A DNA stretch of 64,000 bases from Candidatus Multivoradales bacterium (GTDB lineage: Bacteria > Acidobacteriota > Thermoanaerobaculia > Multivoradales > JAHEKO01): the NCBI GenBank assembly GCA_965248055.1, contig CBDFIJ010000004.1:1120001-1184000 (forward strand). The letters run 5' to 3'. Below the pieces are notes generated by a model. That model was not told where the DNA came from, did not search any database, and worked only from the letters and a program-made list of their open reading frames with translations. Below, in pieces: positions 14,952-28,888 of this stretch. The position numbers and the translations under genes were made by a program. The stretch's first letter is position 1; the number at the start of each line of letters is the position of its first letter.

Positions 14952-15914
14952 ATGACTGACCACCACACAATACTGGGTGCCGCAATGATCGCTCTCGCAC
15001 TGACCGCGGGATGCGCGACCTCGATCGCTCCAAGCGAAACCACAGCAGAGGCTGCCGTTGACGATAGCGAAGCATCTGAAGCCACCCCCTATCGCAGCAT
15101 GCAAGAAGTGCTGGAGGACTCCACCGACAACGATTGGAGACCTCTCGACCCAGAGAACACGCTCTACATGGAACTTAAATCTGGACGGGTGATCATCGAA
15201 CTGGCGACTGCGTTTGCCCCGGAGCACACCGCCAACATGAAGACCTTGGCGCGGGCCGAATTCTGGAACGGCCTGTCGATCTACCGTAGCCAAGACAACT
15301 TCGTGGTGCAATGGGGCGATCCTGCCGCCGACGAAGAAAACAGTCGCTCTCTCGCTCCGGCCCTAGAGCACCTTCCCGCTGAGTTTGACCGCCCGCTGGA
15401 AGGTGTCACTTTCACCGCCCTACCTGATTCTGATGGGTGGTCCGATCAGGCTGGCTTCACCAACGGCTTTCCGTCAGCAACCGACAGCGAACGGGTGTGG
15501 CTTGCCCACTGCTACGGCGCAGTCGGAGCAGGGCGCGCCGCAGAACCGGACAGCAGCACCGGCGCCGAGCTTTACGCGATCATCGGCCAGTCGCCGCGCC
15601 AACTAGATCGCAATATCACCTTGGTTGGCCGGGTGGTGCGGGGCATGGAACTGCTCTCGATTCTTCCCCGCGGACCCGAGCCGATGGGCATTTACGACAG
15701 CGCCGAGAAATACACGCCGATCATCTCGGTCCGGGTGGCTTCAGATGTAGCCGAAACAGACCAGGAACCGCTCGAGATTCTCAGGACCGACACTCAAACC
15801 TTTGCTGACCTGGTCGAAGCGCGGCGCAACCGAGGTGGGTGGTACATCACCCCAGCGGGGCACATCGACCTGTGCAACGTGCCGTTACCGACCCGCGTTT
15901 CAATCGAAGAGTAG
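14952..15914 (+). CDS. Cyclophilin-type peptidyl-prolyl isomerase, lipoprotein
   Basis: Lipobox LTAGC; [33 protein letters not shown]. Confidence 0.88.
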
Positions 15915-15951
15915 GGCGCAAGGAAACTTTGTTTCTGGAGTTCTTGCTGGC

Positions 15952-16476
15952 TTAGGTTTCCGGAATCAACTCAAGAATCGCCACGTAGTCCGACTCTCTG
16001 GCCTCTTTACCAGACTGAGGGTACGGATTCACACTCACCAAACTAATTCGATATCCGAGCGCCAGCGGCGGTTTTTCGCCAGCGGGAACCGGGCTACTCA
16101 AGCTAACGACCTCGGCCTCACTAGTGGATCCTGACACCTCCACTTCCACAGTAACTCTGCCCGCCCAGACACACTGGACCCCGGTTGGGCATCGAGAGTC
16201 GTTGACCGACAGCCAGTGGACTGTCAGATCGTCGACCATGGCCTTCCGATGCAGACCTAGCTGCACTTGCAGTGTCTCATCGCCGCTTTCCGTCCGCGCT
16301 TCGTCTGTGACCTCATCTTTCGACCGAGTTTCCCCAGGACTTGATTCCTCTTGCGAGATTCCAGCGCCAGCGCAGCCACTGACCAGAGCCAGCGTCATCA
16401 CCCCGATAACCAGAAAAAGAGGCGTCCAAGATCGAACCGTTGGGAAGAGGGCGGTCGTCGAAGAAGTAGTGGTCAT
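15952..16476 (-). CDS. Hypothetical lipoprotein (DSRCPxxxxCxWAG motif)
   Basis: Lipobox VSGC; NDSRCPTGVQCVWAG. Confidence 0.8.
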   Translation of the reverse strand: MTTTSSTTALFPTVRSWTPLFLVIGVMTLALVSGCAGAGISQEESSPGETRSKDEVTDEARTESGDETLQVQLGLHRKAMVDDLTVHWLSVNDSRCPTGVQCVWAGRVTVEVEVSGSTSEAEVVSLSSPVPAGEKPPLALGYRISLVSVNPYPQSGKEARESDYVAILELIPET

Positions 16477-16676
16477 GATGGAGAGGAGTATAAGCCGACC
16501 CTGAAAGTGCCGACCCTGAAAGTGCCAGCCAAATATTTACCCCAGCTTCCAGCCCGCGGCAGCTCTATGGAACGAATGGTTAACTTTTCATCGGACGCAC
16601 TGCGTGTGAACCCACGGCAAACCGGCCCTGAAAGTGCCAGCCAAATATTTGCCCGATCTCCTTCGGCACCAGCTCC

Positions 16677-17228
16677 TCATTGGGGTCGTGCTCTATCAGC
16701 CTCGATCTCGTCCAACAGGTTGCTCAAGTGAGCAACGATCTCATTCCTGGCCTTCAAATAATCCACACTCAACGCTGACACGTCACTCCAGTCCATCCTC
16801 GACGCCCCCGCACTCTCAGGCACTTCATTCCCAAACGAAACCACGTAGTCAGCGTCGGCGAGGTCATCGGTGCCGAGGGTTTGGGGTTGATAGCTCTCCA
16901 CCCCGAACCCGTCGCCGCTCAGGGCCGCCGCGAGCGGTCCCGGCACACTATCGTTAGGCGTGATTCCACGGGCGATCGCGCGAACGGGTATCCCCCTGTC
17001 TTTTGCCATACGTTCGAAGTGCCGACTAGATACAAGGCTCTTTGCATAGCCGTACTGGCACACGAATACAACGTCTGTCGGTTCCTCGTGTAACGACACT
17101 CCACTTGCCGAAGCGTCGAGCGCCTCACCGTCGGAGTCGGCGGCGATACCCCGATTCTGTCCTTGGCAACCAGCTAGCGCCATAAGCAGAAAGAGTAAGC
17201 CGGAGAGTCGAGCGATCATGATCTTCAT
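16677..17228 (-). CDS. Lipoprotein with LMW-phosphatase/arsenate-reductase-like fold
   Basis: Lipobox LAGC; VVFVCQYGYAKS P-loop-like motif; ARGITP; ADYVVSF. Confidence 0.75.
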   Translation of the reverse strand: MKIMIARLSGLLFLLMALAGCQGQNRGIAADSDGEALDASASGVSLHEEPTDVVFVCQYGYAKSLVSSRHFERMAKDRGIPVRAIARGITPNDSVPGPLAAALSGDGFGVESYQPQTLGTDDLADADYVVSFGNEVPESAGASRMDWSDVSALSVDYLKARNEIVAHLSNLLDEIEADRARPQ

Positions 17229-17303
17229 GGCTTGATGATAGCGCCACCTTTAGGCATAGTTGGGCTGGGCTGCACCTTTAGGTTCGGGGTTTAGCGGCTT
17301 CGC

Positions 17304-18338
17304 CTACGAGTTAGTAAAAATGTCCTTGGGCAAGTGCATCGTTACCAGCATGTGCGGGATGTCGACGGTCTCAGCGATCTTAAGGTCACCGGCGAGCGAG
17401 CAAAGCATGTAAGCCTCGCTGCGACTGAGACCGTGGGTCTCGGTTAGATAGTCGATCATGTAGCGGGTCGCCTTGCGCGCAGCCTCATCGATCGTGGTCG
17501 CAAAGCCGGTGGTCGCGTAATAGTCGTCAGTCTCGTATTGCGGCTCAGCAATCGATCGACCGCCCTTAATCACACTGACCCGGTAGACGATCCGCATAGG
17601 GGTTTCAATCGCAGTACCGGAGACCTCACCCATACCTTGGACGCCATGGGTGTCGCCAATTGAGAACAAGGCACCGTCCACGAACACTGGAAAATAGACC
17701 GTCGTGCCAGCAACTAGATGTGGATCATCCATGTTGCCGCCATTGGCGCGCGGTGGAATCGTGTTGAGCATCTCGTCAGTATCGGGCGCTACCCCCATGA
17801 CCCCAGCAAACGGGCGGAGCGGGATGCGAATCTCATCAGTGAACTGCAAAACATTGTTTGCTTTATCGAGTGGGAAAGTCTTGAATACCGATTCGTTAAA
17901 CTCCTCCGCGAGAAAGCCAAAACCGGGAAAGATCCCCATCCATCCCCAGTCGCCGACTTCGAGCTCAAGCAGCTCAACCGCGAGTACGTCGCCTGGCGCA
18001 GCGCCTTCGACATAAACCGGCCCGGTCAGCGTGTGGATCTTGTTTGTGTCGAGCGCCTCCATCGTTTCTACGGTTGATTCAATGTTGAACTGGCTACCAG
18101 TCGCCTCCTGAGTAAAGGCCTCAATCACGCTACCCGAGGGCACGGTAAGGGCGGGACGGATGGTACGGCTGAATTTGTCGTGGGTTTGATCGGCGGTCAA
18201 GACAAAGTCCGGTTCCGGAATCGTTACAGCCGGCGAATTCGCCAACTCCGACGAAGCTGGCGGTGCACTCTCACTACACGCCGTAAAGCCCACCGTACAA
18301 GCGACCAACAGAACGACGGACCGGAATTTCTCTTTCAT
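17304..18338 (-). CDS. Acetamidase/formamidase family lipoprotein
   Basis: HTLTGPVYVEGAAPGD, PPRANGGNMD, GDTHGVQGMGEVSGTAIE; lipobox FTAC. Confidence 0.92.
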   Translation of the reverse strand: MKEKFRSVVLLVACTVGFTACSESAPPASSELANSPAVTIPEPDFVLTADQTHDKFSRTIRPALTVPSGSVIEAFTQEATGSQFNIESTVETMEALDTNKIHTLTGPVYVEGAAPGDVLAVELLELEVGDWGWMGIFPGFGFLAEEFNESVFKTFPLDKANNVLQFTDEIRIPLRPFAGVMGVAPDTDEMLNTIPPRANGGNMDDPHLVAGTTVYFPVFVDGALFSIGDTHGVQGMGEVSGTAIETPMRIVYRVSVIKGGRSIAEPQYETDDYYATTGFATTIDEAARKATRYMIDYLTETHGLSRSEAYMLCSLAGDLKIAETVDIPHMLVTMHLPKDIFTNS

Positions 18339-18420
18339 CGATTAGCCCTCTCAAAGAACCACGTGGCACCCACGGTGCCAATTTGATGTACCTGAGTAAG
18401 TTGCACGACAGGACTCGTTC

Positions 18421-19035
18421 TCACGCGAGGTGTTTCCTACCGCGCCTATTTCTATACCTAAACTTTCTCTGATACTCGCGCCGCTGCTTAGTAACTTCAT
18501 ATAGAACGATCCCCGACGTTGTGCCCAAATTCAGGCTTTCGATCATGCCGAGCATCGGTATGTTCACACACAACTCGCTGCGAGCGACCGCAAGGTCACT
18601 AATCCCCCTGGATTCACTGCCAAACCACACCGCTAGCTTGTGATGCTGGGTGTAGTCACCTTCATCCAGCATCACATTTTTGTGGCCTTTTTGATGAGGC
18701 GACGTAACGATAGACACGTACTTGTTCTTCTCCAAGTGCTGGAGACAAGCTTCTGTGCTATCAAACCTTCTTACAAAGCTCCACTTAATCGCGGAAACGG
18801 ATGTCGTCGACAATGATCTACTTTCCCTCATGTCCTGCCAATCATCGGGCAGGGCTCCGTTTGGGTCCACGACATACGCCTTTTCCACACCCAAGGCGTT
18901 TACGTTTCTGATTACCGTGCCGATATTCTTAATGTTATGGGGGTCTTCAATAACAGCAATTAAGTACTTGCATCTATACGGCTTGACCTTGTCCGCACGT
19001 TGGCGCTTGCTACTCTTCTCTGCTGGTTCTTGCAC
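18421..19035 (-). CDS. TrmH/SpoU family RNA methyltransferase
   Basis: PHNIKNIGTVIR, FGSESRGIS, IPMLGMIESLNL. Confidence 0.92.
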   Translation of the reverse strand: MQEPAEKSSKRQRADKVKPYRCKYLIAVIEDPHNIKNIGTVIRNVNALGVEKAYVVDPNGALPDDWQDMRESRSLSTTSVSAIKWSFVRRFDSTEACLQHLEKNKYVSIVTSPHQKGHKNVMLDEGDYTQHHKLAVWFGSESRGISDLAVARSELCVNIPMLGMIESLNLGTTSGIVLYEVTKQRREYQRKFRYRNRRGRKHLA

Positions 19036-19142
19036 TGGTTTCTCTCCGTCGTTCTAATCCTGTCTAGCTCACGGTACCCCGCCCTGGCAAATGGGGAACG
19101 GCAGTGCCAACAACATTCGCCTGGTACCTCTAGCGGAAAACA

Positions 19143-19316
19143 GAATTTGTCGTGGGTTTGATCGGCATGAAGAACGAAATCGACCTCGGGGCCTGCTACA
19201 GCCAAAGGAGGTGAAGTGGACTGCTCTGAGGAATCAGTCGGCGCGCCCATCTGACACGCAACAAAACCTAGAGTGCAACCGACCGACAGGAGTGAGAGCA
19301 CGAGTTTTTTCTTCAT
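19143..19316 (-). pseudogene. 5' fragment of a second acetamidase lipoprotein gene
   Basis: MKKKLV...GFVAC...DFVLHADQTHDKF aligns with the N-terminus of 17304-18338; 24 bp identical (19143-66 vs 18171-94), after which homology stops. Confidence 0.8.
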
Positions 19317-19546
19317 TAATTTACCTTGGTCCAGCAATTGTTCAATCTTAGTAACACCAAGAAATAGTACTCCACACGAGCACTGTCCAGGCTAGCGACG
19401 CACCGTCTCTCTTCAAAAAGAGTGCGGCACCTACTTCCCTTCTACATCTCTGGCACGCGCAATCCCAGTTAATCGCATCGCGCCCTACCTTGGGGCAGCT
19501 ACCGCCTCTCTGCTATTAGCCAAGTCTTATTGGATCCGGCCCGCTG

Positions 19547-20134
19547 CTAGGCGTCAGAAGGGTACTTTAAGCACCACGAGCGATACAGCTCACGCAAAAG
19601 GGACGGGTACACAACCCACCGACGAAACGGTTCGATCAGAAACATGTAGAAAGCGGTGAGCCGCCCAACCGGTTTCACGTAGATGGCCCACAACAACCGA
19701 AACCCGTCTTTACGTCGAATTAATACCCATACGAGCGCGGCGTGCACTGTCGAGTTACGGATCTCACTCATCGCTTCATTGGGATGAACATATAACACGG
19801 TGAACGGTCCGTCCTTCGAACCGGTGGCCACTGTGGAATGGGCGCGATCCGCTTCCGTGATGCGAAGTTGAAACAACCCCTCCTCGCCTACAGGCTCCCG
19901 CTCCCATCCGAATAGCCGACCCAACAACCATCGAATCTCGAACAACAGTCGGACCAAACCGGGCGGCCGGATCGCCAAGACCAGAGAACGGATGTTGGCA
20001 ATCGTGCGCCCGTCACCGCCACCCGGCAAGTCCAGCTGCCACACGTCATGGAGTGGCACACCGTCGAGAACGGTATGGGCACGCAAGTCTTGACTGAGGT
20101 ACTCCGATGCGTCGGTAAGAGCCCATGGAGGCAT
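19547..20134 (-). CDS. DUF2867-like protein, probable integron cassette
   Basis: LHDVW...EIRNSTVH...AIYVKPVGRLTAFYMFLIEPFRRWVVYP; preceded by a GTTAGGC core site at 20164-20158. Confidence 0.75.
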   Translation of the reverse strand: MPPWALTDASEYLSQDLRAHTVLDGVPLHDVWQLDLPGGGDGRTIANIRSLVLAIRPPGLVRLLFEIRWLLGRLFGWEREPVGEEGLFQLRITEADRAHSTVATGSKDGPFTVLYVHPNEAMSEIRNSTVHAALVWVLIRRKDGFRLLWAIYVKPVGRLTAFYMFLIEPFRRWVVYPSLLRELYRSWCLKYPSDA

Positions 20135-20247
20135 GGCATTGATCCTTAGTTGCTACCGCCTAACGTCTCGCGATTTCTGCCGTGCCGCCACTCTGCAGGT
20201 TGGGCCTGCCCTCAAAAGAGGCACCCGAACGTGATCAGAGCTCCCTA

Positions 20248-20900
20248 AAAGTGCCAGCCGAATATTAGCAAGAACGCAGCAACGATTCTCGTCCCTCTCA
20301 CCATGAGCAGGAGACTTCGATTCATACCGCCCGGAGGCGCCTTGGTGGAGGTCACATGCCGTACCATCCAAGGTCGCTTTCTTCTCAAGCCCTCACCCCT
20401 AGCCAACGACATCATTCGAGGTGTCCTAGGGCGAGCACAGAGGAAGTATCCGGTGGAAATCCACGCGTTTGTCTTTATGTCCAATCACTACCACCTGTTG
20501 ATCTCGGTAGCTGATTCCGAGATATAACCGAAAGTTGTGTATGAGAGTTTGAAGGCGGCGTATCCTGAGCCCGGTTTTCAAAGCTGGGTTCAATCATCCC
20601 AAAAGGAGGATACGCCGTTGAGCAAGAGTAACGTAGTTTCAATCGCCGCCAAGGCCATTTGTTCCCGTATTGCAACGGCTCCGTCCAGATTGACTTTCCA
20701 CTTCCATCCCAGAAATGAAACATAGCCGCGCCCCAACATCGGAAAACAAGAAAAATCCAGCAGAAAGAACGCGACCTAACCCCACTTGGCCTGCGATTCA
20801 ACCTGGAGAACGACGCGATCTCGCTCAAAAACACCAAACGAAAGTGTTGACATAGATCAAACGACGTCACGCACCATCCCCTCGAAACAAGGGTGGCACT
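20248..20900 (+). mobile_element. Internally deleted copy of the Y1 transposase element
   Basis: 20248-20521 is nearly identical to the start of the element at 22301; 20652-20900 is nearly identical to 23222-23470; the middle is replaced. Confidence 0.92.
20519..20645 (+). mobile_element. Probable left-end remnant of an IS256-family element
   Basis: GAGATATAACCGAAAGTTGTGTATG end-like sequence; inverted repeat CGGCGTATCCT/AGGATACGCCG covering SD AAGGAGG; TTG start giving MSKSNVVSI. Confidence 0.5.
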
Positions 20901-21027
20901 GGAATTGACGAGTTGACGAGTTGACAGTTGACGGCCCGCACCGTCTCCTCAAAAAGAGGGTGGTACCTATGTCCGCACCCATGTCCCCTATGCCCGAATT
21001 GCGCCAACGTCGCCGACCTACCGCCTC

Positions 21028-21303
21028 TTAATCTTTGGCCATGAAGATCCCGGCCAATCCACCAATCCCTGCTCCGAGAGCGCCCCAGAGTGCGTCGGCA
21101 ACTTCCTTATCGAAGACAGGAAGCAAGACCGCCCCAATTGCCAACAACAGAGTCACCGCTCCAAGAAAAAGGATAGCGGTGTTGTAAGTCTTGGATGGCA
21201 ACTTATCAACGATCGCCTGGCTGGCAGCGTCCAGTTGCGCATCTGGAACACCATGGTCTTTCAATGTACTTCTAACTGTGCTGATATTCATACGAATCTC
21301 CAT
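21028..21303 (-). CDS. Small 2-TM membrane protein
   Basis: Two hydrophobic helices at the C-terminus; flanked by the dispersed motifs. Confidence 0.75.
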   Translation of the reverse strand: MEIRMNISTVRSTLKDHGVPDAQLDAASQAIVDKLPSKTYNTAILFLGAVTLLLAIGAVLLPVFDKEVADALWGALGAGIGGLAGIFMAKD

Positions 21304-21556
21304 TTGTTGCGTTTAGAGGTTGGAAGAATTCGGGACTCTTGGTAATGCAATCCTGGATGTACCGCTTCTCCTCGCTGCGAGACAGTCGAGCGCTGTGCGG
21401 CGCATCGCCTCGTTGAGGGCTTGCGCGCCATCTCGACGCTACTCACGCCAACCACCACACCTCACAATTCAGTCGTCCAACCGCTAACAAAAAAGAACAC
21501 AGCGATTGTACACCGACAAGTGTGCGGAGCGAGCTAAAAGTGCCAGCCAAATATTT

Positions 21557-21690
21557 GGCTCCTTAAGCGCTTCAATCCTCGCGTCTAGCCCCTTGATACC
21601 TGAAGCGCTATTGACCTCGACGCCGAACATGGAAGGACCTACCAAGACGAGCGTCACTATTGATAATCGAATAGCGCTTTTTGACGGCAT
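21557..21690 (-). pseudogene. 5' fragment of a secreted protein, truncated at a Y1 left-end motif
   Basis: SD AAGGAAGG, ATG 21690, signal-peptide-like MPSKSAIRLSIVTLVLVG; runs into the motif at 21537-56. Confidence 0.5.
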
Positions 21691-21725
21691 TGTCCTTCCT
21701 TTTGTCAACATAGCGGAGTTTGAGC

Positions 21726-22190
21726 TCACCGGCGACACCCGAAACACCAAAGGCCCTTGGCTGCACCAACCAGAATACACCTTGCGGAAGGTTGCCGGCC
21801 CCCCAGCAGTTGAGTAGCGATGAAGGCCGCCAACGCGAAGAGTGGGGGAGCGGTTACGACACCTGGGAAATAGCTTCCTCGAAGAACAGCCATGGTGGGA
21901 TGAACGATTCCGTTTCCGAGTTCGATCAACACCCACGGCCACATCCAATTCGACGCTGATGGATGACCTGGTCGTACGCGGGCCAGATAGCACCAAGCTC
22001 CGAGGGCAATAAGAACACCGTTGAGAATCGCGAAACCCAACGCAAGGTCAGTGCTGACGAGGCCGCTCGCGAAGCGTGCAGGCGCGAACACTTCGTAGAG
22101 CTTGAAAACGTACTCCTCGATCGAATGAGCGCCCTGCGTGAGGACCAGAGCGAGGAAAGCGTTTCTAGTGCGCAGATCGATCGGACTCAC
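21726..22190 (-). CDS. HXXEE-domain membrane protein, probable first integron cassette
   Basis: AHSIEEY, NGIVH, YFPGVVTAP; GTG start 7 bp after GTTAGGC. Confidence 0.82.
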   Translation of the reverse strand: MSPIDLRTRNAFLALVLTQGAHSIEEYVFKLYEVFAPARFASGLVSTDLALGFAILNGVLIALGAWCYLARVRPGHPSASNWMWPWVLIELGNGIVHPTMAVLRGSYFPGVVTAPPLFALAAFIATQLLGGRQPSARCILVGAAKGLWCFGCRR

Positions 22191-22196
22191 GCAACC

Positions 22197-22260
22197 GCCT
22201 AACATCCAATGGACAGAAACATTGTTGTACAACACACCGATGAGCGTACTACGTTAATAA
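22197..22260 (-). other. Candidate integron attI site
   Basis: GTTAGGC (GTTRRRY) at 22203-22197 directly before a cassette-like gene, with no attC palindrome, and divergent from the intI remnant. Confidence 0.5.
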
Positions 22261-22300
22261 CAACGAGCGATCCTGGTGAACTTGCACGGATGGTCTCTAG

Positions 22301-23471
22301 AAAGTGCCAGCCAAATATTTGCAAGGACACAGCAACGATTCTCGTCCCTCTCACCATGAGCAGACGACTTCGATTCATCCCGCCCGGAGGCGCCTTGGTG
22401 GAGGTCACATGCCGTACCATCCAAGGTCGCTTTCTCCTCAAGCCTTCGCCCCTGGCCAACGACATCATTCGAGGTGTCCTAGGGCGAGCACAAAGGAAGT
22501 ATCCGGTGGAAATCCACGCGTTTGCCTTCATGTCCAATCACTACCACCTGTTGATCTCGGTGGCTGACTCCGAGCAAATGGCCAAGTTCATGAACCATCT
22601 CAACGGAAACTTGGCCCGCGAACTCGGCAGACTGCACAATTGGACGGACAAATTTTGGTCTAGGAGATACCAAGCCATCGTCATCAGTGAAGAACAAGCA
22701 GCGCAAGAAGAGCGAATGAAATACATACTCAGCCAGGGCGTCAAAGAAAGGCTGGTTGCCCATCCAGTTGATTGGCCTGGAGTTCAGAGCGTAGAGACGT
22801 TGCTGCGCCGCAAGTCGACCGTCGAAGGCCACTGGAGAGACAGGACCCGAGAGTTTCATGCTCGCGGGTTGGACAGTGGCTTGGTCTTTCGTACCAGGGA
22901 ACGAGTCTTCCTAACTCCCCTTCCCTGCTGGGCCGATCGCAATCCAAAGTGGATTGCTCAACGAATACAGGAGCTGATCCAGATTGTGCAACAGGACAAT
23001 CCGTTCATAGAGCGTTCAGAGATTCCCGACCTGGACCCTACATACCGACCGAGCAAGCTCAAGCGCCGACCAGCACCCATGTTTCACTGCGCCAGCAAGG
23101 CGATGCGCAGGATCCTCTATGAAGCCTACTCGTGGTTCGTCCTGGCATATCGTGAAGCCTGCGCTCGGTTGAAAGCTGGCAACCTCACCGCCGCCTTCCC
23201 TCCTGGGTCCTTCCCACCACCCAGGCCATTTGTGCCCGTATAGCAACGGCTCCGTCCAGATTGGCTTTCCACTTCCATCCCGGAAGTGAAACATAGCCGC
23301 GCCCCAACATCGAAAAACAAGAAAAATCCAGCAGAAAGAACGCGACCTACCCCACTTGGCCTGCGATTCAACCTAGAGAACGACGCGATCTCGCTCAAAA
23401 ACACCAAACGAAAGTGTTGACACACATCAAACGACGTCATGCACCGTCCCCTCGAAACAAGGGTGGTACCT
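22301..23471 (+). mobile_element. Y1 (IS200/IS605/RAYT-type) element, full-length copy
   Basis: Bounded by the left motif AAAGTGCCAGCC and the right hairpin plus GGGTGGTACCT; limits set by comparison with the second copy. Confidence 0.85.
22356..23243 (+). CDS. HUH Y1 tyrosine transposase (RAYT/IS200-like, 295 aa)
   Basis: MSRRLR start, FMSNHYHLL (HuH), FWSRRY, catalytic Tyr in MKYILSQGVK, DWPGVQS; C-terminal FPPGSFPP. Confidence 0.93.
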   Translation: MSRRLRFIPPGGALVEVTCRTIQGRFLLKPSPLANDIIRGVLGRAQRKYPVEIHAFAFMSNHYHLLISVADSEQMAKFMNHLNGNLARELGRLHNWTDKFWSRRYQAIVISEEQAAQEERMKYILSQGVKERLVAHPVDWPGVQSVETLLRRKSTVEGHWRDRTREFHARGLDSGLVFRTRERVFLTPLPCWADRNPKWIAQRIQELIQIVQQDNPFIERSEIPDLDPTYRPSKLKRRPAPMFHCASKAMRRILYEAYSWFVLAYREACARLKAGNLTAAFPPGSFPPPRPFVPV

Positions 23472-23492
23472 AGCGGCGCCCGTGCCCGTATA

Positions 23493-23576
23493 GCCCGGTT
23501 ACGCCACATGAGTCCGCGCACCGAGGACTCGTACTTGGGTTGGGTCAAGAGATAAATCAGGTTTCATGATCTGAAG
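23493..23576 (+). pseudogene. intI: Integron integrase N-terminal remnant
   Basis: Manual translation ARLRHMSPRTEDSYLGWVKR*IRFHDLK matches the IntI N-terminal signature (cf. IntI1 [25 protein letters not shown]); internal TAA at 23553. Confidence 0.8.
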
Positions 23577-23613
23577 TTCAAAAAAAAGAAAAAAGAGGGT
23601 GGTACCTATGTCC

Positions 23614-23785
23614 TCGTCCATCAAACTTCGGATCCGCCGCAACGGATGAGACCGAGGAATTCGCCGTTCCAGGTCAACGTAGCTGAACATTGATCCCTCA
23701 CCTTGATCCGATCCACGCATCAAAACCTCCTATTCCCAATTATAGAATCGTTATGGTCAGGTGGTGGGGTTTTTCAGCAAGCTCT
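23614..23785 (-). mobile_element. IS5-family remnant (left end plus first ~36 codons)
   Basis: End AGAGCTTGCTGAAAAACCC; SD AGGAGG; MRGSDQGEGSMFSYVDLERRIPRSHPLRRIR; cut off at the Y1 right motif. Confidence 0.85.
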
Positions 23786-24080
23786 TAGAGGTTGGATTTA
23801 CGATCTTACCGATCATTTCGAAGTACGAGAAGACAATCGCGATGAGCCCATAGGCAGCATGACACCAAATGTCTTGCTTCCCCTCCCGATCATCCTCCAT
23901 CTCCTTTAGCACCTGCACGGCAACACCAAGCTGCCAGACTTCCACTCTACATTCGAAGATTTCGATCTTGTCCGTGAGAGTCCACGGCTTCTGCTTTTGT
24001 TGAATGAACTGCATTGGTGGCAAGAACACATCCCCGGAGTTGAAGTCCAGGAACTTACTGCTACGGAACACCCCGTTCAT
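23786..24080 (-). pseudogene. Hypothetical gene fragment interrupted by the IS5 remnant
   Basis: Protein-like ORF (DKIEIFECRVEVWQL...SYFEMIGK) whose 3' end reads into the IS end. Confidence 0.6.
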
Positions 24081-24189
24081 ACGTTACCCACTACGAATCT
24101 CCTTTCTCCTTGATAAAGGCCTGACTGACCACGCCAGCGAACATCTCTCCTCGAAAAAGAGGGTTCTATGAGTCGGGCGGTCCAGTCAA

Positions 24190-24441
24190 GGGTTTTCTTT
24201 CCATCGATCATGCGTTCTTTAGATTCGGATCTAACCTCAGGACGAGCTTCTATTCGCACTCTCTTGGGTCCGTCTTTGGACCGGTGCATGGTGAGTTTTC
24301 CGTCTGTTGAGGAAATTCGATGCTCCCATCTGGCACGCGGAGTCCCAGCCTCCAACCCATTTATCGGAGTCATCGAAACTTTTCATCCGTCCTTTGAAAC
24401 TCATGACTGATTTCTCTTGCTTTCTTACTTCGAATCCTCGC
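24190..24441 (-). ncRNA. Candidate IS110 bridge/seekRNA (downstream non-coding region)
   Basis: About 250-nt non-coding region 3' of the transposase with hairpins (GGTCC-N5-GGACC) and short matches to the IS end (AUAGAA) and to the target motif (GUGCCA). Position is typical of the IS1111 group. Confidence 0.55.
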
Positions 24442-25455
24442 TTATGTGGCTTGTGGAAACGGCTGGAAATTCTCGTTTGTGACCCACAACCTATGCAGTA
24501 GGACTCCGATCTTTCTAGCCAGCGCTACCACTGCTTTGCTCTTACCTAGCCTTGCCACCAAACCCTCACCCCAGCGCTTGAGCGCTGAGTCCTTGTGACA
24601 CTGTAAAGATGCATGCGCAGCCTGGACCAGGAGTCGGCGCATCTCGCTATCCCCCTCCCGAGTGATCCGGCCACGGATCTCATGCCCTCCTGAGCTGCGA
24701 AGCGAGGGCCTCAAGCCCAGGCATGCTCCAACATCTCGACTCTTTTGAAACCGATCTGGATTGTCTACCCAGCCGGCAAAAGCCAAGCTCACCAGAGGCC
24801 CTACCCCGGGCACTGTCTGCAGACGAACGAGAAGCTCATCGGTACTTGCTTGAGCTTTCAGGTCATTCTCTAGCTCACAGATCCGATCCGACAGCTCACC
24901 GATCGTCGATACCAAGGGAGCCAGGGCCTCTGATACTCCCGAATCGAATCCCATCGATTCGTAACGCACCATGAAAATCTTGGCCGCACACGAAGGCATC
25001 CGGTAGCCCTGAGCACGCAGAGTCCCACGTACCGCGTTGATCAACGAAGTCCGAGACTTAACCAGAGCCGATCGCACCCGTAAACGAGTGCGAAGCTCCT
25101 GGGCCTCAGGGCTTCGCTGATACACCGGACGCAGAAACCCCAGGTCTAATCGGCTCAGCCGAGCTAAAACCTCGGCATCAATGCCGTCGGTCTTTAGTGT
25201 CGATTCGGCAATCAAACGCACTCGCCGGGGATTGACTACCGTTACCGCATGACCTAGATCACACAGCAACCGATATACCCACGGCGTCACCGGACCGCTC
25301 TCCAGCGTCACTTGTGCACGCTCACGAGAACCGAAGAACCCACGGATCGACGTCTCCGTCGTCGAAATCCGACGACGAACCGTCACCTCACCCTCCTGAG
25401 ATATCCCACATACCTCGCTGTACTTTGAGTGAACGTCAATGCCAAGATACTCCAT
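24442..25455 (-). CDS. IS110-family transposase/recombinase (337 aa)
   Basis: YLGIDVH, LES, KTDGIDA (DEDD RuvC), VPGVG, GLRPSLRSSG (catalytic Ser), VALARK; SD AAGGAG before ATG 25455. Confidence 0.96.
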   Translation of the reverse strand: MEYLGIDVHSKYSEVCGISQEGEVTVRRRISTTETSIRGFFGSRERAQVTLESGPVTPWVYRLLCDLGHAVTVVNPRRVRLIAESTLKTDGIDAEVLARLSRLDLGFLRPVYQRSPEAQELRTRLRVRSALVKSRTSLINAVRGTLRAQGYRMPSCAAKIFMVRYESMGFDSGVSEALAPLVSTIGELSDRICELENDLKAQASTDELLVRLQTVPGVGPLVSLAFAGWVDNPDRFQKSRDVGACLGLRPSLRSSGGHEIRGRITREGDSEMRRLLVQAAHASLQCHKDSALKRWGEGLVARLGKSKAVVALARKIGVLLHRLWVTNENFQPFPQAT

Positions 25456-25678
25456 GGTCGGTCTCCTTTCTCGGCTAGATGCCGATTTCTTTGGTTGATC
25501 CAAACTGGCACATTGTCCCAGCTTGGAGACCGACCGACTCATCTCATCTGGCACCTCTGTCTGCGTCAATATGGGGCACGATACTGCCTGGGGTACCGAG
25601 GACTGATAACTCGACTGCCTAGATCCTGATGAGTGGCTGGAGCGTTATCGACTCCTACTTAATGAGACCCAAAAACTA

Positions 25679-25891
25679 GCGCTGCCTTTCTTTGATCACT
25701 CAATACCGGGACGCCCCCACCCGGAAAGAAAAGATGTACCCCTTGACATAACACCGCCTAATAAGTGGCACCTATGTCTGTTCTTTTGGCGCTGCCTTTC
25801 TTTGATCACTCAATACCGGGACGCCCCCCACCCGGAAAGAAAAGATGTACCCCTTGACATAACCCCGCCTAATAAGTGGCACCTATGTCTG
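25679..25891 (+). repeat. Tandem direct repeat, 2 x ~102 bp (period 110)
   Basis: GCGCTGCCTTTC...CCTTGACATAAC...GTGGCACCTATGTCTG at 25679-780 and 25789-891. Confidence 0.95.
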
Positions 25892-25896
25892 GGAAC

Positions 25897-27318
25897 CTAG
25901 CTGGCTCGTTGATGCGAAAACACGGAGAACGTCGTGACATTTCTTTCTTTGCCTTTTAGAACCTCATACGTCTGCAAGCCGAAGAATACTGCTGCACTTT
26001 GGGTAGTGATGGCCGCGACCGAGCGATCCTGAGAGGCGATCCAGGCTGCGTGGTAATTTGATTGAGGGGGTTCTGGTATTCGGGGGAGTACTCGCGCCCG
26101 CTTCTTCATGTAGTCATACACTTGCAGGTATGCGGAATCGACAGCTGCGACTTGCGACGGCCTCTCTCTCGGTGACGCACCGGCAAGAACAAACGACACG
26201 TCAAGCCTGATACTGCCACTTTGTATATAGTGATCTTTAAGCTTTTCAACAGCGCCAGAGGTCATTGTAGGCGGAGTGACTTCGTCTATCCGCGTATTCT
26301 CTACGGGTATGCAGATATGCTCTAGTGTGCCGCCCTCAAACAAGTGCATTGCCTTGTCAAGGCGTTCGAACGGTACAACCACGGGGGGGCGGTCGCGATT
26401 GCGCCTATCAGCACAATAGCGCTGAGCAGCCTCAAACGTAAAAGTGAACGGCATCAATGAACCCACAAATTCAAACCCTCGAATAGGGAGCCTTGAAACA
26501 TCAAGACCATCCAAGAACTTGATAACGTCAAGCGCGAGCTTCCAATGGAAGTTCACTGCATATTTTCTGGGGTCCATGGTGGTCAGCAGTTCCTCTATTA
26601 GATCCACGATCTCTCGATGAGATAGGGCCGGCCCCTGACGCAACAAATGTTGGCGAAAGACGGACAAGCATTCGACCACGTCCGCATGTGGACCAATCGT
26701 GAACAATGAGTTCGCGCGACGGGCGACCCCTCGCTCTTTTGATGAGTAGTGTCGATTGGTGCGATGTAAATAGGTTTCATCTACGATCTGTAGTTGCAAG
26801 GTCAGGCCCTGGCTCTGTTGTACGCGTACCGGGTGCAAAGCAACTCGTCCGCGATATAACGGTAGCGCGGCGAATCGTTCCAGCAGCAGTAGCCAAACGA
26901 GACCATTTTCGGGTAGTTCTGCATCTAAGATGAGGATTCTGGTGTAATCGACACCACGGAGTATCGCCTCCGCCACTGCAGAGACATACTCGCGTGTACG
27001 CTGATCCACCCATTGCGACCCTCGGCCAATCACTTCGATGCGACACTCGGCCTTGCGATCTATGATGGCTGAGATCAGAGCTAGCCCTGCGGCGTCATCA
27101 TCGGTCCTAGCCACTCGATGAGCAGTGTCGAAGAGCGATGAGAGACGTTCAGCAAGTAGTTCGTTGACCAAGCGCCGTGCGGCGCCCTGTACTCTGCGTC
27201 GCCTATGCCTCGCAACTGCAACCCCAAAAACAGCGAGTACGGCCGCAGCAACTAAACCCCCTATCGCTTCAGGCAGCGAGTCGGTCAATACATCTGTGAA
27301 GTCAGCAAACACCACCAT
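25897..27318 (-). CDS. Membrane-anchored protein with unknown middle domain and degenerate prephenate-dehydratase-like C-terminal domain
   Basis: N-terminal TM followed by an Arg cluster; ICIPVENT and AAITTQSAAVFFGL...NVTTFSVF resemble PDT VPIENS and AAIAS..AA..YGL..N.TRF. Confidence 0.7.
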   Translation of the reverse strand: MVVFADFTDVLTDSLPEAIGGLVAAAVLAVFGVAVARHRRRRVQGAARRLVNELLAERLSSLFDTAHRVARTDDDAAGLALISAIIDRKAECRIEVIGRGSQWVDQRTREYVSAVAEAILRGVDYTRILILDAELPENGLVWLLLLERFAALPLYRGRVALHPVRVQQSQGLTLQLQIVDETYLHRTNRHYSSKERGVARRANSLFTIGPHADVVECLSVFRQHLLRQGPALSHREIVDLIEELLTTMDPRKYAVNFHWKLALDVIKFLDGLDVSRLPIRGFEFVGSLMPFTFTFEAAQRYCADRRNRDRPPVVVPFERLDKAMHLFEGGTLEHICIPVENTRIDEVTPPTMTSGAVEKLKDHYIQSGSIRLDVSFVLAGASPRERPSQVAAVDSAYLQVYDYMKKRARVLPRIPEPPQSNYHAAWIASQDRSVAAITTQSAAVFFGLQTYEVLKGKERNVTTFSVFSHQRAS

Positions 27319-27631: not shown

Positions 27632-28888
27632 ATGACCGAATGGATGGAGTTCTGGCCGGCGTTCTTGATCGCATCCGCCATTGGCTTGGTGATCGGTCTG
27701 TTGATCGGGCTAATGATGGGCCAAGCTCGAACTCGCAAACTGGAGATTGAGCGCGCCAAGGAGGCAACTCGCTCCGAAGAAAGGCTGCGGGGCCAGGTTG
27801 ATCTGGCGGAGCAACAAGAGGCGGTGTTTCGCGCCGCTGCGTCGGAGGCGCTGCAAGCCAATAACGATCAATTCCTCAAACTCGCTGAGCAACGATTGAC
27901 CCAAGCCCGCTCGGAGGCGACTTCCGATTTGGAAGCGCGCAAGGTGGCGATCACGCATCTAGTAAAGCCGATGAAAGAAACCTTGGACCGGCTCACCGCC
28001 CAAACGGTGGACCTGGAGCGCCAGCGATCGAAGGCCTACGGCAAATTGGAGCAACACCTTGGCCTGCTGGTCACCCAGACCCAAGATTTGAGCCAGAACA
28101 CAGCGTCGTTATCGACTGCGCTGCGCGGATCGACCGCCGGGGGCCGGTGGGGTGAGATTGCGCTGCGCAATTTGGTGGAGATAGCGGGGATGAATGAGCA
28201 CGTCGACTTTCAGGATCAAGGCAGTCTCCCAGGGGGTGGACGTCCTGACCTGACCATCACGCTGCCGGGCAACCGCTTTATTGCGGTGGACGCCAAGGCG
28301 CCGACGTCCGCCTATTTGGACATTCTCGAAACCGAGGACGCCGACACGGCTAAGCAACGCAGGGCCTCACTGGCTAAGGTGATTCGCGGCCACGTACAGC
28401 AGTTGTCCAGTCGGGAGTACGCCGACCAACTGGAAGGCGACGTCGATTACGTGGTGCTGTTCTTGCCCGCCGACGCAATCCTCGCGGAGGCCTTCAAAGC
28501 GGACCGTGATCTACAGCTAGACGCGTTTCGCAAGCGGGTTTTGGTGGCAACACCGACGATACTGGTGGCCTTGCTACGCACCGTGGCTTTTGACTGGCAA
28601 CGCAATGCGCTAGAGACCAACGCTCACGCAATTGGCGAGCTAGCGGAGACCTTGATCGATCGAGTGTCGCTTTTTGCTCAGAACTTGGGAGAGCTTGGTT
28701 CCAGCCTTGATCGAGCTGTGGGTTCGTACAATCGCGCAGCCAATTCTTTCCGCATGCGGATACGCCCGCTAAAACAAAAACTGGCGGATTTATCGGGGGG
28801 CGAAGGTGCCGAGCGCAAAGATCCAGAGCAGATCACCCAGCGAGTGACCGACCCAGATGTTGGGATCGATGATCGGAGTTCGAACTAG
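27632..28888 (+). CDS. rmuC: DNA recombination protein RmuC
   Basis: N-terminal TM, coiled coil, GRWGEIAL, RPD, VDAKAP, VATPTILVALLRTV. Confidence 0.95.
   Translation: MTEWMEFWPAFLIASAIGLVIGLLIGLMMGQARTRKLEIERAKEATRSEERLRGQVDLAEQQEAVFRAAASEALQANNDQFLKLAEQRLTQARSEATSDLEARKVAITHLVKPMKETLDRLTAQTVDLERQRSKAYGKLEQHLGLLVTQTQDLSQNTASLSTALRGSTAGGRWGEIALRNLVEIAGMNEHVDFQDQGSLPGGGRPDLTITLPGNRFIAVDAKAPTSAYLDILETEDADTAKQRRASLAKVIRGHVQQLSSREYADQLEGDVDYVVLFLPADAILAEAFKADRDLQLDAFRKRVLVATPTILVALLRTVAFDWQRNALETNAHAIGELAETLIDRVSLFAQNLGELGSSLDRAVGSYNRAANSFRMRIRPLKQKLADLSGGEGAERKDPEQITQRVTDPDVGIDDRSSN

Follow-up and report, generated by a model that had tools for sequence, protein, structure and literature searches.

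We analysed a 64-kb stretch of the chromosome of Candidatus Multivoradales bacterium (contig CBDFIJ010000004.1, positions 1,120,001 to 1,184,000; hereafter the window), in which an island of about 9.4 kb is made up of short genes, gene fragments and pieces of mobile elements. Towards its right side stands an intact element that carries a single gene, for a transposase of the Y1 type (HUH superfamily), between imperfect terminal inverted repeats (TIRs; LE and RE, left and right end), and that interrupts the remains of an integron integrase gene (intI). Ends of the same kind lacking a transposase gene (solo ends) recur through the island. Taken together, the data described below make it fairly probable that the island is a dead integron colonised by lineage-wide elements of the TIRtron/TIRYT kind, with units consisting of TIRs only and with by-products at their tips. 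The genome under study (G000) comprises one 3.35-Mb chromosome (contig C4) and three small contigs (C1-C3); it was compared with relatives that include one from the same genus (G001) and one from another genus (G011).

A Y1 element in the remains of an integron integrase gene

The start of intI, preceded by an attI-like region, lies to the left of the Y1 element and a further piece of the gene to its right (Table 1), so that about 36 intI codons are left in the window, split after codon 3. Excision of 22300-23472 in silico rejoins intI in frame, which indicates that the element inserted into the gene at codon 4; the empty site reconstructed in this way fits either no target duplication or one of 2-4 nt. 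An intact integron is found elsewhere on the chromosome (stretch L001, where 16850-17806 equals C4:1492852-1493769), and its integrase matches TIGR02249 at 344 bits (cut-off 265) and carries the integron-specific patch. Segments 22195-22295 and 23500-23575 of the window are contiguous at C4:1492760-1492952 with 78% identity. The attI/intI junction is 78% identical over 101 nt to that of the intact integron, and the intI remnant encodes 21 aa that are 71% identical to residues 7-27 of intact IntI.

All six cassette-like genes that were scanned (Pfam found a family for five) lie on the minus strand, directed away from intI, and their functions are unrelated. Just upstream of gene starts, at 22197 and 20158, the minus strand carries R'-like GTTAGGC boxes. 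Of the window's spacers, 20158-20205 alone has both attC-type boxes. The initial annotation had recognised half an attC site there; both boxes are in fact present, but the spacer does not fold. The GTTGGGC box gave 16 matches against 10.1 expected, a number reached by 3 of 100 shuffles and thus not significant. The attI-like region and the intI remnant bear out the earlier proposal that the island lies over a dead integron. The island is most likely what remains of a second chromosomal integron, through which, and not through the Y1 enzyme, its cassette genes came.

As to the intact integron, its attI region is accompanied by one or more attC candidates that fold well (first cassette, L001 15866-15945, z -3.8), and two Y1 elements and solo REs lie 5-11 kb into its array side. 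Proximity was seen a second time in G003, from another genus, where a split (frameshifted or broken) intI and a Y1 gene of this family (41% identity) stand 2.2 kb apart (C55:24618-25560 and 27785-28705). Synteny with the same-genus relative G001 holds at ~68% DNA identity, with the flanks of the island ~2.3 kb apart there against ~15.6 kb here; at this divergence the borders of the island are not definable from G001.

Table 1. Features of the island, in window coordinates
Feature	Position	Strand	Remarks
Solo LE (16519-16538)	16497-16538	+	15-nt tandem stutter GACCCTGAAAGTGCC x2 in front (16497-16526); homology to full LE ends after ~21 nt
Second solo LE	16631-16650	+	Inner boundary equally sharp
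LMWPc gene (low-molecular-weight phosphatase/ArsC-like)	16677-17228	-	Pfam
Acetamidase/formamidase (FmdA_AmdA) gene	17304-18338	-	Pfam
Weak end-motif match	18347-18376	-	E 0.78; contains 7-bp TGGCACC/GGTGCCA hairpin, fold z -2.1
SpoU methylase gene	18421-19035	-	Pfam
Solo RE	19111-19135	+	Tip GGTACCT at 19123-19129
Acetamidase paralogue, 5' fragment	19143-19337	-	58 aa, 59% identical to N-terminus of full gene; cut 14 nt from RE tip (19129)
Diverged RE-like copy	19394-19433	+	68% to reference RE
DUF2867 gene	19547-20134	-	Pfam
Degenerate attC-like spacer	20158-20205	-	R''-like GCCCAAC ... R'-like GTTAGGC; no fold (z -0.5)
Degraded second Y1 copy, 94% identical	20248-20901	+	LE and first 73 codons 20248-20521; 3' non-coding part and RE 20646-20901
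128-bp end piece of ~1.37-kb insertion sequence (IS)	20518-20645		~10 copies, 91-100% identical; replaces middle of degraded Y1 copy
Solo RE (…GAGGGTGGTACCTATGTCC)	20930-20974	+	Profile and repeat search
Small open reading frame (ORF)	21028-21303	-	No family match
Solo LE	21537-21556	+	Inner edge abuts 5' part of signal-peptide ORF (~21557-21700, minus strand)
First cassette-like gene, HXXEE (below Pfam cut-off)	21726-22235	-	Start overlaps R'-like GTTAGGC at 22197-22203
attI-like region and first 3 codons of dead intI	22195-22299	+	ATG at 22290
Intact Y1 element, 1173 bp	22300-23472	+	LE 22301-22320; ORF 22356-23243; 229-nt non-coding; RE (RE1) tip GGGTGGTACCTA at 23461-23472
intI remnant, codons ~5-36, one stop	23473-23579	+	In frame with 22290-22299 once element removed
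RE2, partial solo RE	23590-23613	+	Repeat search and profile
IS5-like end remnant, 177 bp	23614-23790		8 other copies; full element L001 13382-14518
RE3, inner half (CTCCTCGAAAAAGAGGG)	24143-24163	+	Split by IS110
IS110-family element	24164-25548	-	DEDD_Tnp_IS110 and Transposase_20; inserted in RE3
RE3, tip half (TGGCACCT)	25549-25556	+	Right limit of 100% identity with C4:2104274-2107530
204-bp repeat and partial tandem copy	25572-25891	+	Each ends in RE-tip-like GTGGCACCTATGTCTG

The Y1 protein, its terminal inverted repeats and their distribution

The 295-aa product of the Y1 gene matches the Pfam family Y1_Tnp (PF01797, E 1e-11). Its HUH motif, H62-Y-H64, and Tyr123 (in KYILSQ) take the positions of the catalytic residues of ISDra2 TnpA in an alignment. 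Among 42 aligned homologues none departs from H62, H64 and Y123, and a long C-terminal part with the motifs LPCW, APxFH and FPxGSFPP is invariant as well. An AlphaFold (AF2) model (pLDDT 84, pTM 0.83) was most similar in Foldseek to TnpA_REP (4er8, E 2e-6, TM 0.68 on the target), followed by ISDra2, IS200 and IS608, with a probability of 1.00 for the matches 4er8, 2xm3, 2f4f and 2vjv. Residues 135-295 (~160 aa) had no match among solved structures and no Pfam family, a helix-turn-helix (HTH) domain included, and in the Atlas this C-terminal domain gave weak leads to unnamed clusters only (best score 0.91). Of the NCBIfam models, that for RAYT (NF047646) scored best, at 58 bits against its cut-off of 80; NF033573, for IS200, reached 29 bits (cut-off 55). 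Homologues number more than 1570, with lengths of 296-313 aa, and many are labelled 'RayT' by JGI. Judged by its motif set (NHYH / W-S / Y-x-x-x-Q) and its length of ~300 aa, the protein fits no subclass listed in Table 1 of Quentin et al. 2018: Y---Q would place it in class 1, but its length and copy pattern would not. The Pfam match, the ISDra2 alignment and the fold matches thus agree with the HUH Y1 enzyme named in the initial annotation, and the absence of TnpB stated there holds among the ORFs listed for the window.

Elements carrying such genes are ~1.15-1.2 kb long, with one gene each, for a protein of 295-313 aa whose N-terminal part holds the TnpA_REP/IS200 fold with its catalytic residues, and with ends that are ~22-nt imperfect inverted repeats (AGGTNCCASSCGAWTWTTG...). 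We examined 13 paralogue loci; a common 22-nt pattern accommodates 9 of their left and 5 of their right ends. The consensus ends derived from the aligned paralogue flanks are AGGTNCCASCCGAATWATTGCAAG on the left and CTCTCAAWAATCGCCTGGNACCT on the right. The TIRs vary with the Y1 paralogue that they flank, and the left and right motifs first described in the window are one variant of this family. Their cores had been read as imperfect inverted repeats, a relation that is real and reaches ~22 nt in all paralogues, and had been taken for the ends of the transposase's element, as the alignment of the paralogue ends on one pattern now confirms. By reading, the GGGGWSAS motif is not present in the aligned ends.

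Between members of one subfamily, the homology runs from TIR to TIR. L001 5364-6528 and 10709-11882 are 95% identical in this way and have unlike flanks; 20248-20899 and 22301-23469 of the window are 94% identical, with the 128-bp piece of another IS in place of the middle of the former; and three copies in G011, at 88-91%, share the same core and have unrelated flanks. We also looked for this arrangement at 64 related loci, drawn from public genomes whose titles name Thermoanaerobaculia or Acidobacteriota. An LE motif lies at most 120 nt upstream of the Y1 gene in 26 of them (1 in control windows); 47 have an RE motif at most 450 nt downstream (control 11), and 22 have the two together (control 0).

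Three further features of the genes and ends were recorded. A conserved block, (T)TGCGTCTCT, stands ~12-20 nt upstream of the Y1 ATG in all paralogues (window copy TCTCGTCCCTCT, 22336-22355) and may be a regulatory or binding site. The coding sequence of RYQAI(I/V)V in the Y1 gene resembles the element's own TIR (16.6 bits with the position weight matrix; C4:2373688 and 2374666), and at locus L004 a Y1 gene fragment is joined to an RE at the HYH-coding stretch.

The CCTC-loop-GAGG hairpin attributed earlier to the right motif did not withstand analysis. Three RE DNA folds were no better than those of shuffles (z -1.3, +0.8 and -1.0), an alignment of six paralogous 3' regions predicted 0 conserved pairs, with only the TIR itself conserved, and the CCTC/GAGG stem is absent from the other paralogues; a hairpin of the RE as guide was therefore rejected. 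Likewise, no conserved RNA or structure was seen in the ~230-nt 3' non-coding part in the alignment of the six 3' regions, and Rfam, at E up to 1 over 15500-27000, gave 0 matches. Targeting of sequences like the element's own RE tip was also rejected, since only 1 of 18 LE left flanks reaches the 95th percentile of 5000 random sites.

Within the window, the left motif AAAGTGCCAGCCAAATATTT occurs five times with at most 3 mismatches (16519, 16631, 20248, 21537 and 22301, all on the plus strand), and 0 of 100 shuffles matched it. A profile built from end motifs across the genome gave 9 matches in RE orientation (18347, 19111, 20876, 20943, 23446, 23593, 25548, 25765 and 25876; E 0.0016-14), to which a repeat search adds a tenth, diverged RE-like copy at 19394. 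The 14 profile sites (5 LE and 9 RE) all fall within 16516-25889 in a single element orientation. In the ~54.6 kb of the window outside the island nothing was found at E<0.3, the best match being 40236 (E 0.33). The initial annotation had counted five left motifs and about ten right variants in one orientation and had seen none in the backbone; we find 5 and 9-10, in one orientation, and the backbone is free of them at this threshold. As for the 204-bp repeat at the right border, it has 4 further copies in the genome, including those at C4 1.386, 1.491 and 3.287 Mb; a 110-111-bp tandem duplication lies inside it (window 25679-25891), and each of its units ends in CCGCCTAATAAGTGGCACCTATGTCTG, where an R'-like TTAGGCGG box is joined to a motif resembling the RE tip.

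The genome holds ~10 full-length Y1 paralogues with 58-68% protein identity, plus fragments; 10 have full-length open frames with no stop. A 22-nt weight matrix found 80 sites at 16 bits or more (its 14 training sites counted among them) against 3 in a Markov-1 simulation. These form about 10 clusters, at 0.60, 0.66-0.69, 1.136-1.143 (the window), 1.29-1.30, 1.38-1.40, 1.48-1.49, 2.10, 2.20, 2.23 and 2.37 Mb, of which the one at 1.48-1.49 Mb adjoins the intact integron. Most sites inside one cluster point the same way. Solo ends are thus clustered in variable islands over the whole genome, the pattern on which the earlier hypothesis had laid weight. Many of the sites are units of an end alone: the three solo LEs of the window lose homology to the full LE after 21-27 nt at a sharp shared inner boundary, and a 42-nt RE unit (GCCCGAGCAGACC…CAGTCAG) is present in at least 3 independent contexts. 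The orientation of Y1 relative to replication is uniform in 11 of 13 genes or gene fragments (7 of 8 clusters), with the direction taken from GC skew and an origin near 1.92 Mb, the clusters being few and the copies not independent; such a bias would fit a replication-linked single-strand mechanism.

Among relatives, 34 of 41 genomes (a tally that includes the unpublished G002) have Y1 matches, up to 25 per genome, against 10 of 41 with intI. G011, which is 92% complete, has 25 Y1 matches and no intI match. Since both ends and tip duplications (see below) occur in G011, and since Y1 is so much more widespread than intI, the ends do not depend on integrons.

Breakpoints, duplications and competing explanations

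Several genes of the island are broken where TIR tips lie. The IS5-like remnant begins at 23614, directly after RE2; the intI remnant is held between RE1 (tip 23472) and RE2 (23590-23613); and the secretion-signal ORF fragment runs into the solo LE at 21557. Together with the acetamidase fragment, these support the earlier observation that the motifs sit at or near gene breakpoints. The cluster at 1.39-1.40 Mb contains Y1 gene pieces and a transposase fragment bounded by RE units, some of the joints showing 8-11-nt microhomology. A second kind of footprint consists of tip stutters, in which a stretch of 9-15 nt across a tip and its flank stands twice in tandem; they were found at 9 of 74 tips and at 16 of 3000 random sites, a ~23-fold difference; further stutters lie at C4:2375030, 1487854 and 1300283 and at the G011 loci L014, L019 and L020. 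The Y1 transposons, of which the island holds whole copies and end-pieces of 20-45 bases, probably made many of its breakpoints; two more breaks are explained by the 128-bp piece and the IS5-like end of 177 bp.

The IS110-family element, whose transposase ORF occupies 24442-25569 on the minus strand, exists in four copies at least 99.9% identical (window, C4:1379050-1380443, 804837-806096 and 2104274-2105666). In two of the four it is inserted at the same spot of the TIR core, GAGGG/TGGCAC in RE3 and AATCGGC/TGGCAC in an LE at 1.38 Mb (the slash marks the insertion), the window RE3 site and its 2.10-Mb duplicate being counted as one; the ends of Y1 elements therefore serve as an IS110 target. 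This element has ~280 nt of non-coding sequence 3' of its transposase gene, with no Rfam match, which could hold a guide (bridge-type) RNA.

The largest event that involves the ends is a duplication. Window 22300-25556 (3257 bp) is 100% identical, in inverted orientation, to C4:2104274-2107530, and the flanks differ on both sides. Read from the LE tip, the Y1 gene is followed by RE1, the intI fragment and RE2, then by the IS5 remnant and an ORF; RE3 comes last, its inner half before and its tip half after IS110. The start of intI, which the fragment continues, is still present in the window only, so the window was the source of the copy and 2.10 Mb its destination. On the right, the identity ends 8 nt past the IS110 end, and 6 of these 8 nt are the core common to IS110 target sites; since the right limit is thus also an IS110 end plus core, recombination between a resident Y1 element and IS110 explains the copy equally well. 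We therefore consider transposition from the LE to a distal RE, with passengers, and gene conversion about equally likely, and composite transposition, once a candidate for proven capture, was downgraded. No further large TIR-bounded duplication was present among the 70 longest of 482 repeat pairs.

A patchwork of this kind could be produced by an assembly that collapsed or mis-joined repeats, the more so in a repeat-rich region where short-read contigs break at every repeat border, but we regard this as highly improbable. Contigs from four sequencing runs cover 16000-20306 and 20823-22329 without differences and bridge the junctions LE/intI (22300), RE1-intI-RE2-IS5 (23443-23643) and RE3/IS110 (24164), and the depth in run X1 scales with copy number (single-copy sequence ~57, Y1 element 149, IS110 265). 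The four runs, available as contigs, come from one sample that is probably the source of the assembly, so that their support is not independent. Two further features of the genome lie elsewhere: a ~6.9-kb unit present three times in tandem at C4:3105293-3127267 (96-97% identical), and the contigs C1-C3 (14.8, 16.7 and 28.4 kb), whose G+C content of 39-43%, against 57% for the chromosome, suggests that they could be foreign replicons, phage or contamination.

How might the island have arisen? In the account we favour, a dead integron colonised by elements of the TIRtron/TIRYT kind, the Y1 enzyme would nick and rejoin single-stranded DNA at TIR tips during replication, as in IS200/IS605 and REP/RAYT systems, acting both on whole elements and on TIR-only units of ~21-45 nt. 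Such units would spread and pile up locally in the manner of REPs, and by-products would be tip duplications, gene fragments abutting tips and perhaps the copying of DNA between an LE and a distal RE; the site-specific IS110, the IS5-like element and the 1.37-kb IS add further breaks. The nick-and-join chemistry, the part of the enzyme in the breakpoints and the REP-like spread are all inferred.

A number of observations weigh against this account. With ends that lack hairpins, the recognition mode of IS200/IS605 is not simply transferable. The LE left flanks show a loose CCCT(R) pattern only and are not RE-like (the six flanks of window-type LEs end in CCCTG three times and in CCCTA, AGCTA and CTCTA), and at the 21537 solo LE the gene fragment lies on the inner side, which simple outward deletion from the tip leaves unexplained. 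Apart from the sole identical pair, which is part of a larger duplication, the paralogues are 58-95% identical, a divergence that looks more like that of old or domesticated copies than of an active IS. The contigs of the four runs contain no empty-site, circle or excision joints, forms that if rare are invisible in contigs; the circle junctions that the initial annotation led one to expect were accordingly not seen there. On the side of the integron, a crude scan for AAC…GTT hairpins found no canonical attC between the cassette-like genes, its top matches lying inside genes, although a strict scan, empty everywhere, also missed the good L001 candidate, so that both scans are too crude to be given weight; the integron origin of the genes consequently rests on attI/intI, on orientation and on the two R'-like boxes only. 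Nor is the link with integrons general, since three 20-kb stretches beside intI (G032, and two loci of G034), together with the partial G033 and G003, showed no TIR at E<0.2, their array side not being established. In metagenome scans, neither an intI start free of interruption nor a further copy of the window LE was found (0 and 0).

The initial annotation went further: in its view solo ends serve the Y1 enzyme for capturing, deleting and reshuffling DNA, with an integron-like array as the outcome. It is true that all 9 of 9 spacers between cassette-like genes hold at least one TIR-like motif in one orientation (an assessment made partly by eye), that gene fragments abut tips in the window and are bounded by RE units at 1.39-1.40 Mb, that a gene in L001 (7755-8409) lies between two direct RE units 779 nt apart, and that the 3257-bp copy runs from an LE tip to an RE tip with an intI fragment, an IS5 remnant and an ORF as passengers. 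Against this, the right limit of that copy is equally an IS110 end with its 6-nt target core and no comparable duplication was seen among the longest repeat pairs, while the attI-like region, the intI start and the gene orientation fit ordinary capture by an integron. No RE-gene-RE unit was seen in two places, and the scrambled clusters look like fragment graveyards and unlike arrays made of intact genes. The case for gene capture and array building therefore has one ambiguous event behind it and is not supported beyond that, and we consider this proposal unlikely. The same doubt attaches to its mechanistic form, in which the Y1 enzyme would cut on either side of a hairpin-free ~22-nt TIR, recognised perhaps through the conserved C-terminal domain, and join it to unrelated DNA. 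TIRs would then replace attC, any DNA between two of them could be moved or deleted, as the 3.26-kb copy with its intI passenger would illustrate, and an HUH-based shuffling of cassettes would operate on top of the integron and after its death.

The TIR units could instead be passive debris of old or domesticated Y1 genes, with breaks made by short-repeat recombination of the host and by other ISs. The 58-68% protein identity of the paralogues here, the DNA identity of at most 91% in G011, where a search for recent transposition found no copies above that value, the lack of visible mobility in the contigs and the demonstrable cutting of the island by other ISs speak for debris, and divergence of this kind is typical of the non-IS TnpA_Y1 classes in the consulted part of PMC6006769. 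Passive decay is at odds, however, with the enrichment of stutters exactly at tips and their presence in two genera, with solo LEs that share sharp inner boundaries and a 42-nt RE unit in several contexts, with the two 100% identical copies and the 94-95% pairs whose homology runs TIR to TIR between different flanks, and with 10 stop-free full-length paralogues whose catalytic residues are invariant among the 42 homologues; we think it rather unlikely. That the motifs are the attC-type sites of this lineage, moved by IntI with the Y1 genes as mere cassettes, would account for their position in spacers beside attI/intI, their single orientation and the joining of an RE-tip-like motif to an R'-like box that the 204-bp repeat shows. 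Around Y1 genes, though, the motifs form inverted repeats that differ from paralogue to paralogue, and in G011, a genome in which intI was not found, they are accompanied by stutters; Y1 and intI are also very unequally distributed among the relatives, and the attC candidate of the intact integron folds, unlike a TIR. We give this explanation hardly any credence.

Comparison with known systems

The comparisons that follow refer to the consulted parts of the cited papers. Y1 genes lying between inverted repeats other than repetitive extragenic palindromic (REP) elements go by the name of TIRtrons or TIRYT, for TIR-associated tyrosine transposases (Di Nocera et al. 2013, PMC3733652), and their TIRs form moderately abundant families, occurring single, paired or clustered, with a TIRYT group specific to Acidobacteria (PMC3733652). 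The elements described here share with them the RAYT-like Y1 gene between non-REP TIRs, the TIR repeat family and the presence of several genes per genome, but lack the GGGGWSAS motif of many (not all) published TIRs and the HTH that subclass 2.1 has in its C-terminal part. TIRYT is treated under this subclass by Quentin et al. 2018 (PMC6006769), who leave its function open, and the consulted parts of both papers give no transposition mechanism for TIRYT. By its architecture the family is of the TIRtron/TIRYT kind, and its predicted fold resembles both TnpA_REP and IS200 enzymes. Island-restricted clustering, tip stutters, fragments at tips and the integron context, seen here, are not reported for TIRtrons in those parts of PMC3733652.

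REPtrons, which pair TnpA_REP/RAYT with REP, BIME or REPIN repeats (PMC6006769, PMC8266576; PDB 4er8), provide the best fold match, and like the present elements they have a gene between inverted copies of a repeat that also exists alone. The protein differs in scoring below the RAYT cut-off (58 vs 80 bits) and in having KYILSQ in place of the class-2 Y---NP (PMC6006769). Their repeats are palindromic hairpins, present in hundreds and dispersed between genes, whereas those here number ~80 and are clustered and non-palindromic, and they have about one gene copy per genome in contrast to ~10. A diversifying role of TnpA_REP beside lanthipeptide genes was proposed and then softened (10.1101/2020.03.09.984088). 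With the IS200/IS605 family (IS608, ISDra2), in turn, the elements share Y---Q, class 1.1 of PMC6006769. Further common features are the Y1 core fold, the catalytic residues and the orientation bias relative to replication. IS200/IS605 elements insert 3' of a fixed tetra- or pentanucleotide and duplicate no target; here the left flanks follow the loose CCCT(R) pattern, and a target duplication is not clear, the reconstructed site fitting none or one of 2-4 nt. That family has subterminal hairpins, no TIRs and a TnpA of ~130-160 aa, unlike the 22-nt inverted repeats and the 295 aa found here, where a conserved C-terminal domain is added, TnpB is missing and the copies are mostly diverged, with one identical pair and pairs at 94-95% set against the several near-identical copies per genome of IS200/IS605.

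The nearest model for gene capture is that of IS91 and ISCR, whose HUH enzymes mobilise neighbouring genes through the use of a distal end; these have two catalytic tyrosines, are much larger and have ends that are not inverted repeats, and no one-ended event was seen here. IS1111-group elements target attC sites. The IS110-type ISPpu9 targets REPs (PMC8450116), and the IS110 element of the island differs from both in targeting the end of a Y1 element. Chromosomal integrons and CALIN elements (PMC4889954) correspond to the island in the intI remnant, the attI-like region and the short unrelated genes directed away from intI, but here intI is destroyed, crude scans found no folding attC sites between the genes, and TIR motifs stand there instead. 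No report linking integrons with such Y1 enzymes was found among the top-ranked literature matches.

Should the enzyme be able to link lone ends to foreign sequence, gene islands of the integron type would have in it a new source of rearrangement; otherwise the island is no more than a common junkyard of mobile elements nested in one another. The tip duplications look like a mechanistic footprint, and end-only units appear to spread by themselves. With a large conserved family, sharp ends, recent copies and a site-specific IS110 that uses the ends as target, the system is a tractable case. Compared with what is known, the elements and their ends are a variant of a known, mechanistically unexplored kind, to which the stutters, the gene fragments at tips, the insertion of IS110 in the TIR core and the 3.26-kb copy are new additions.

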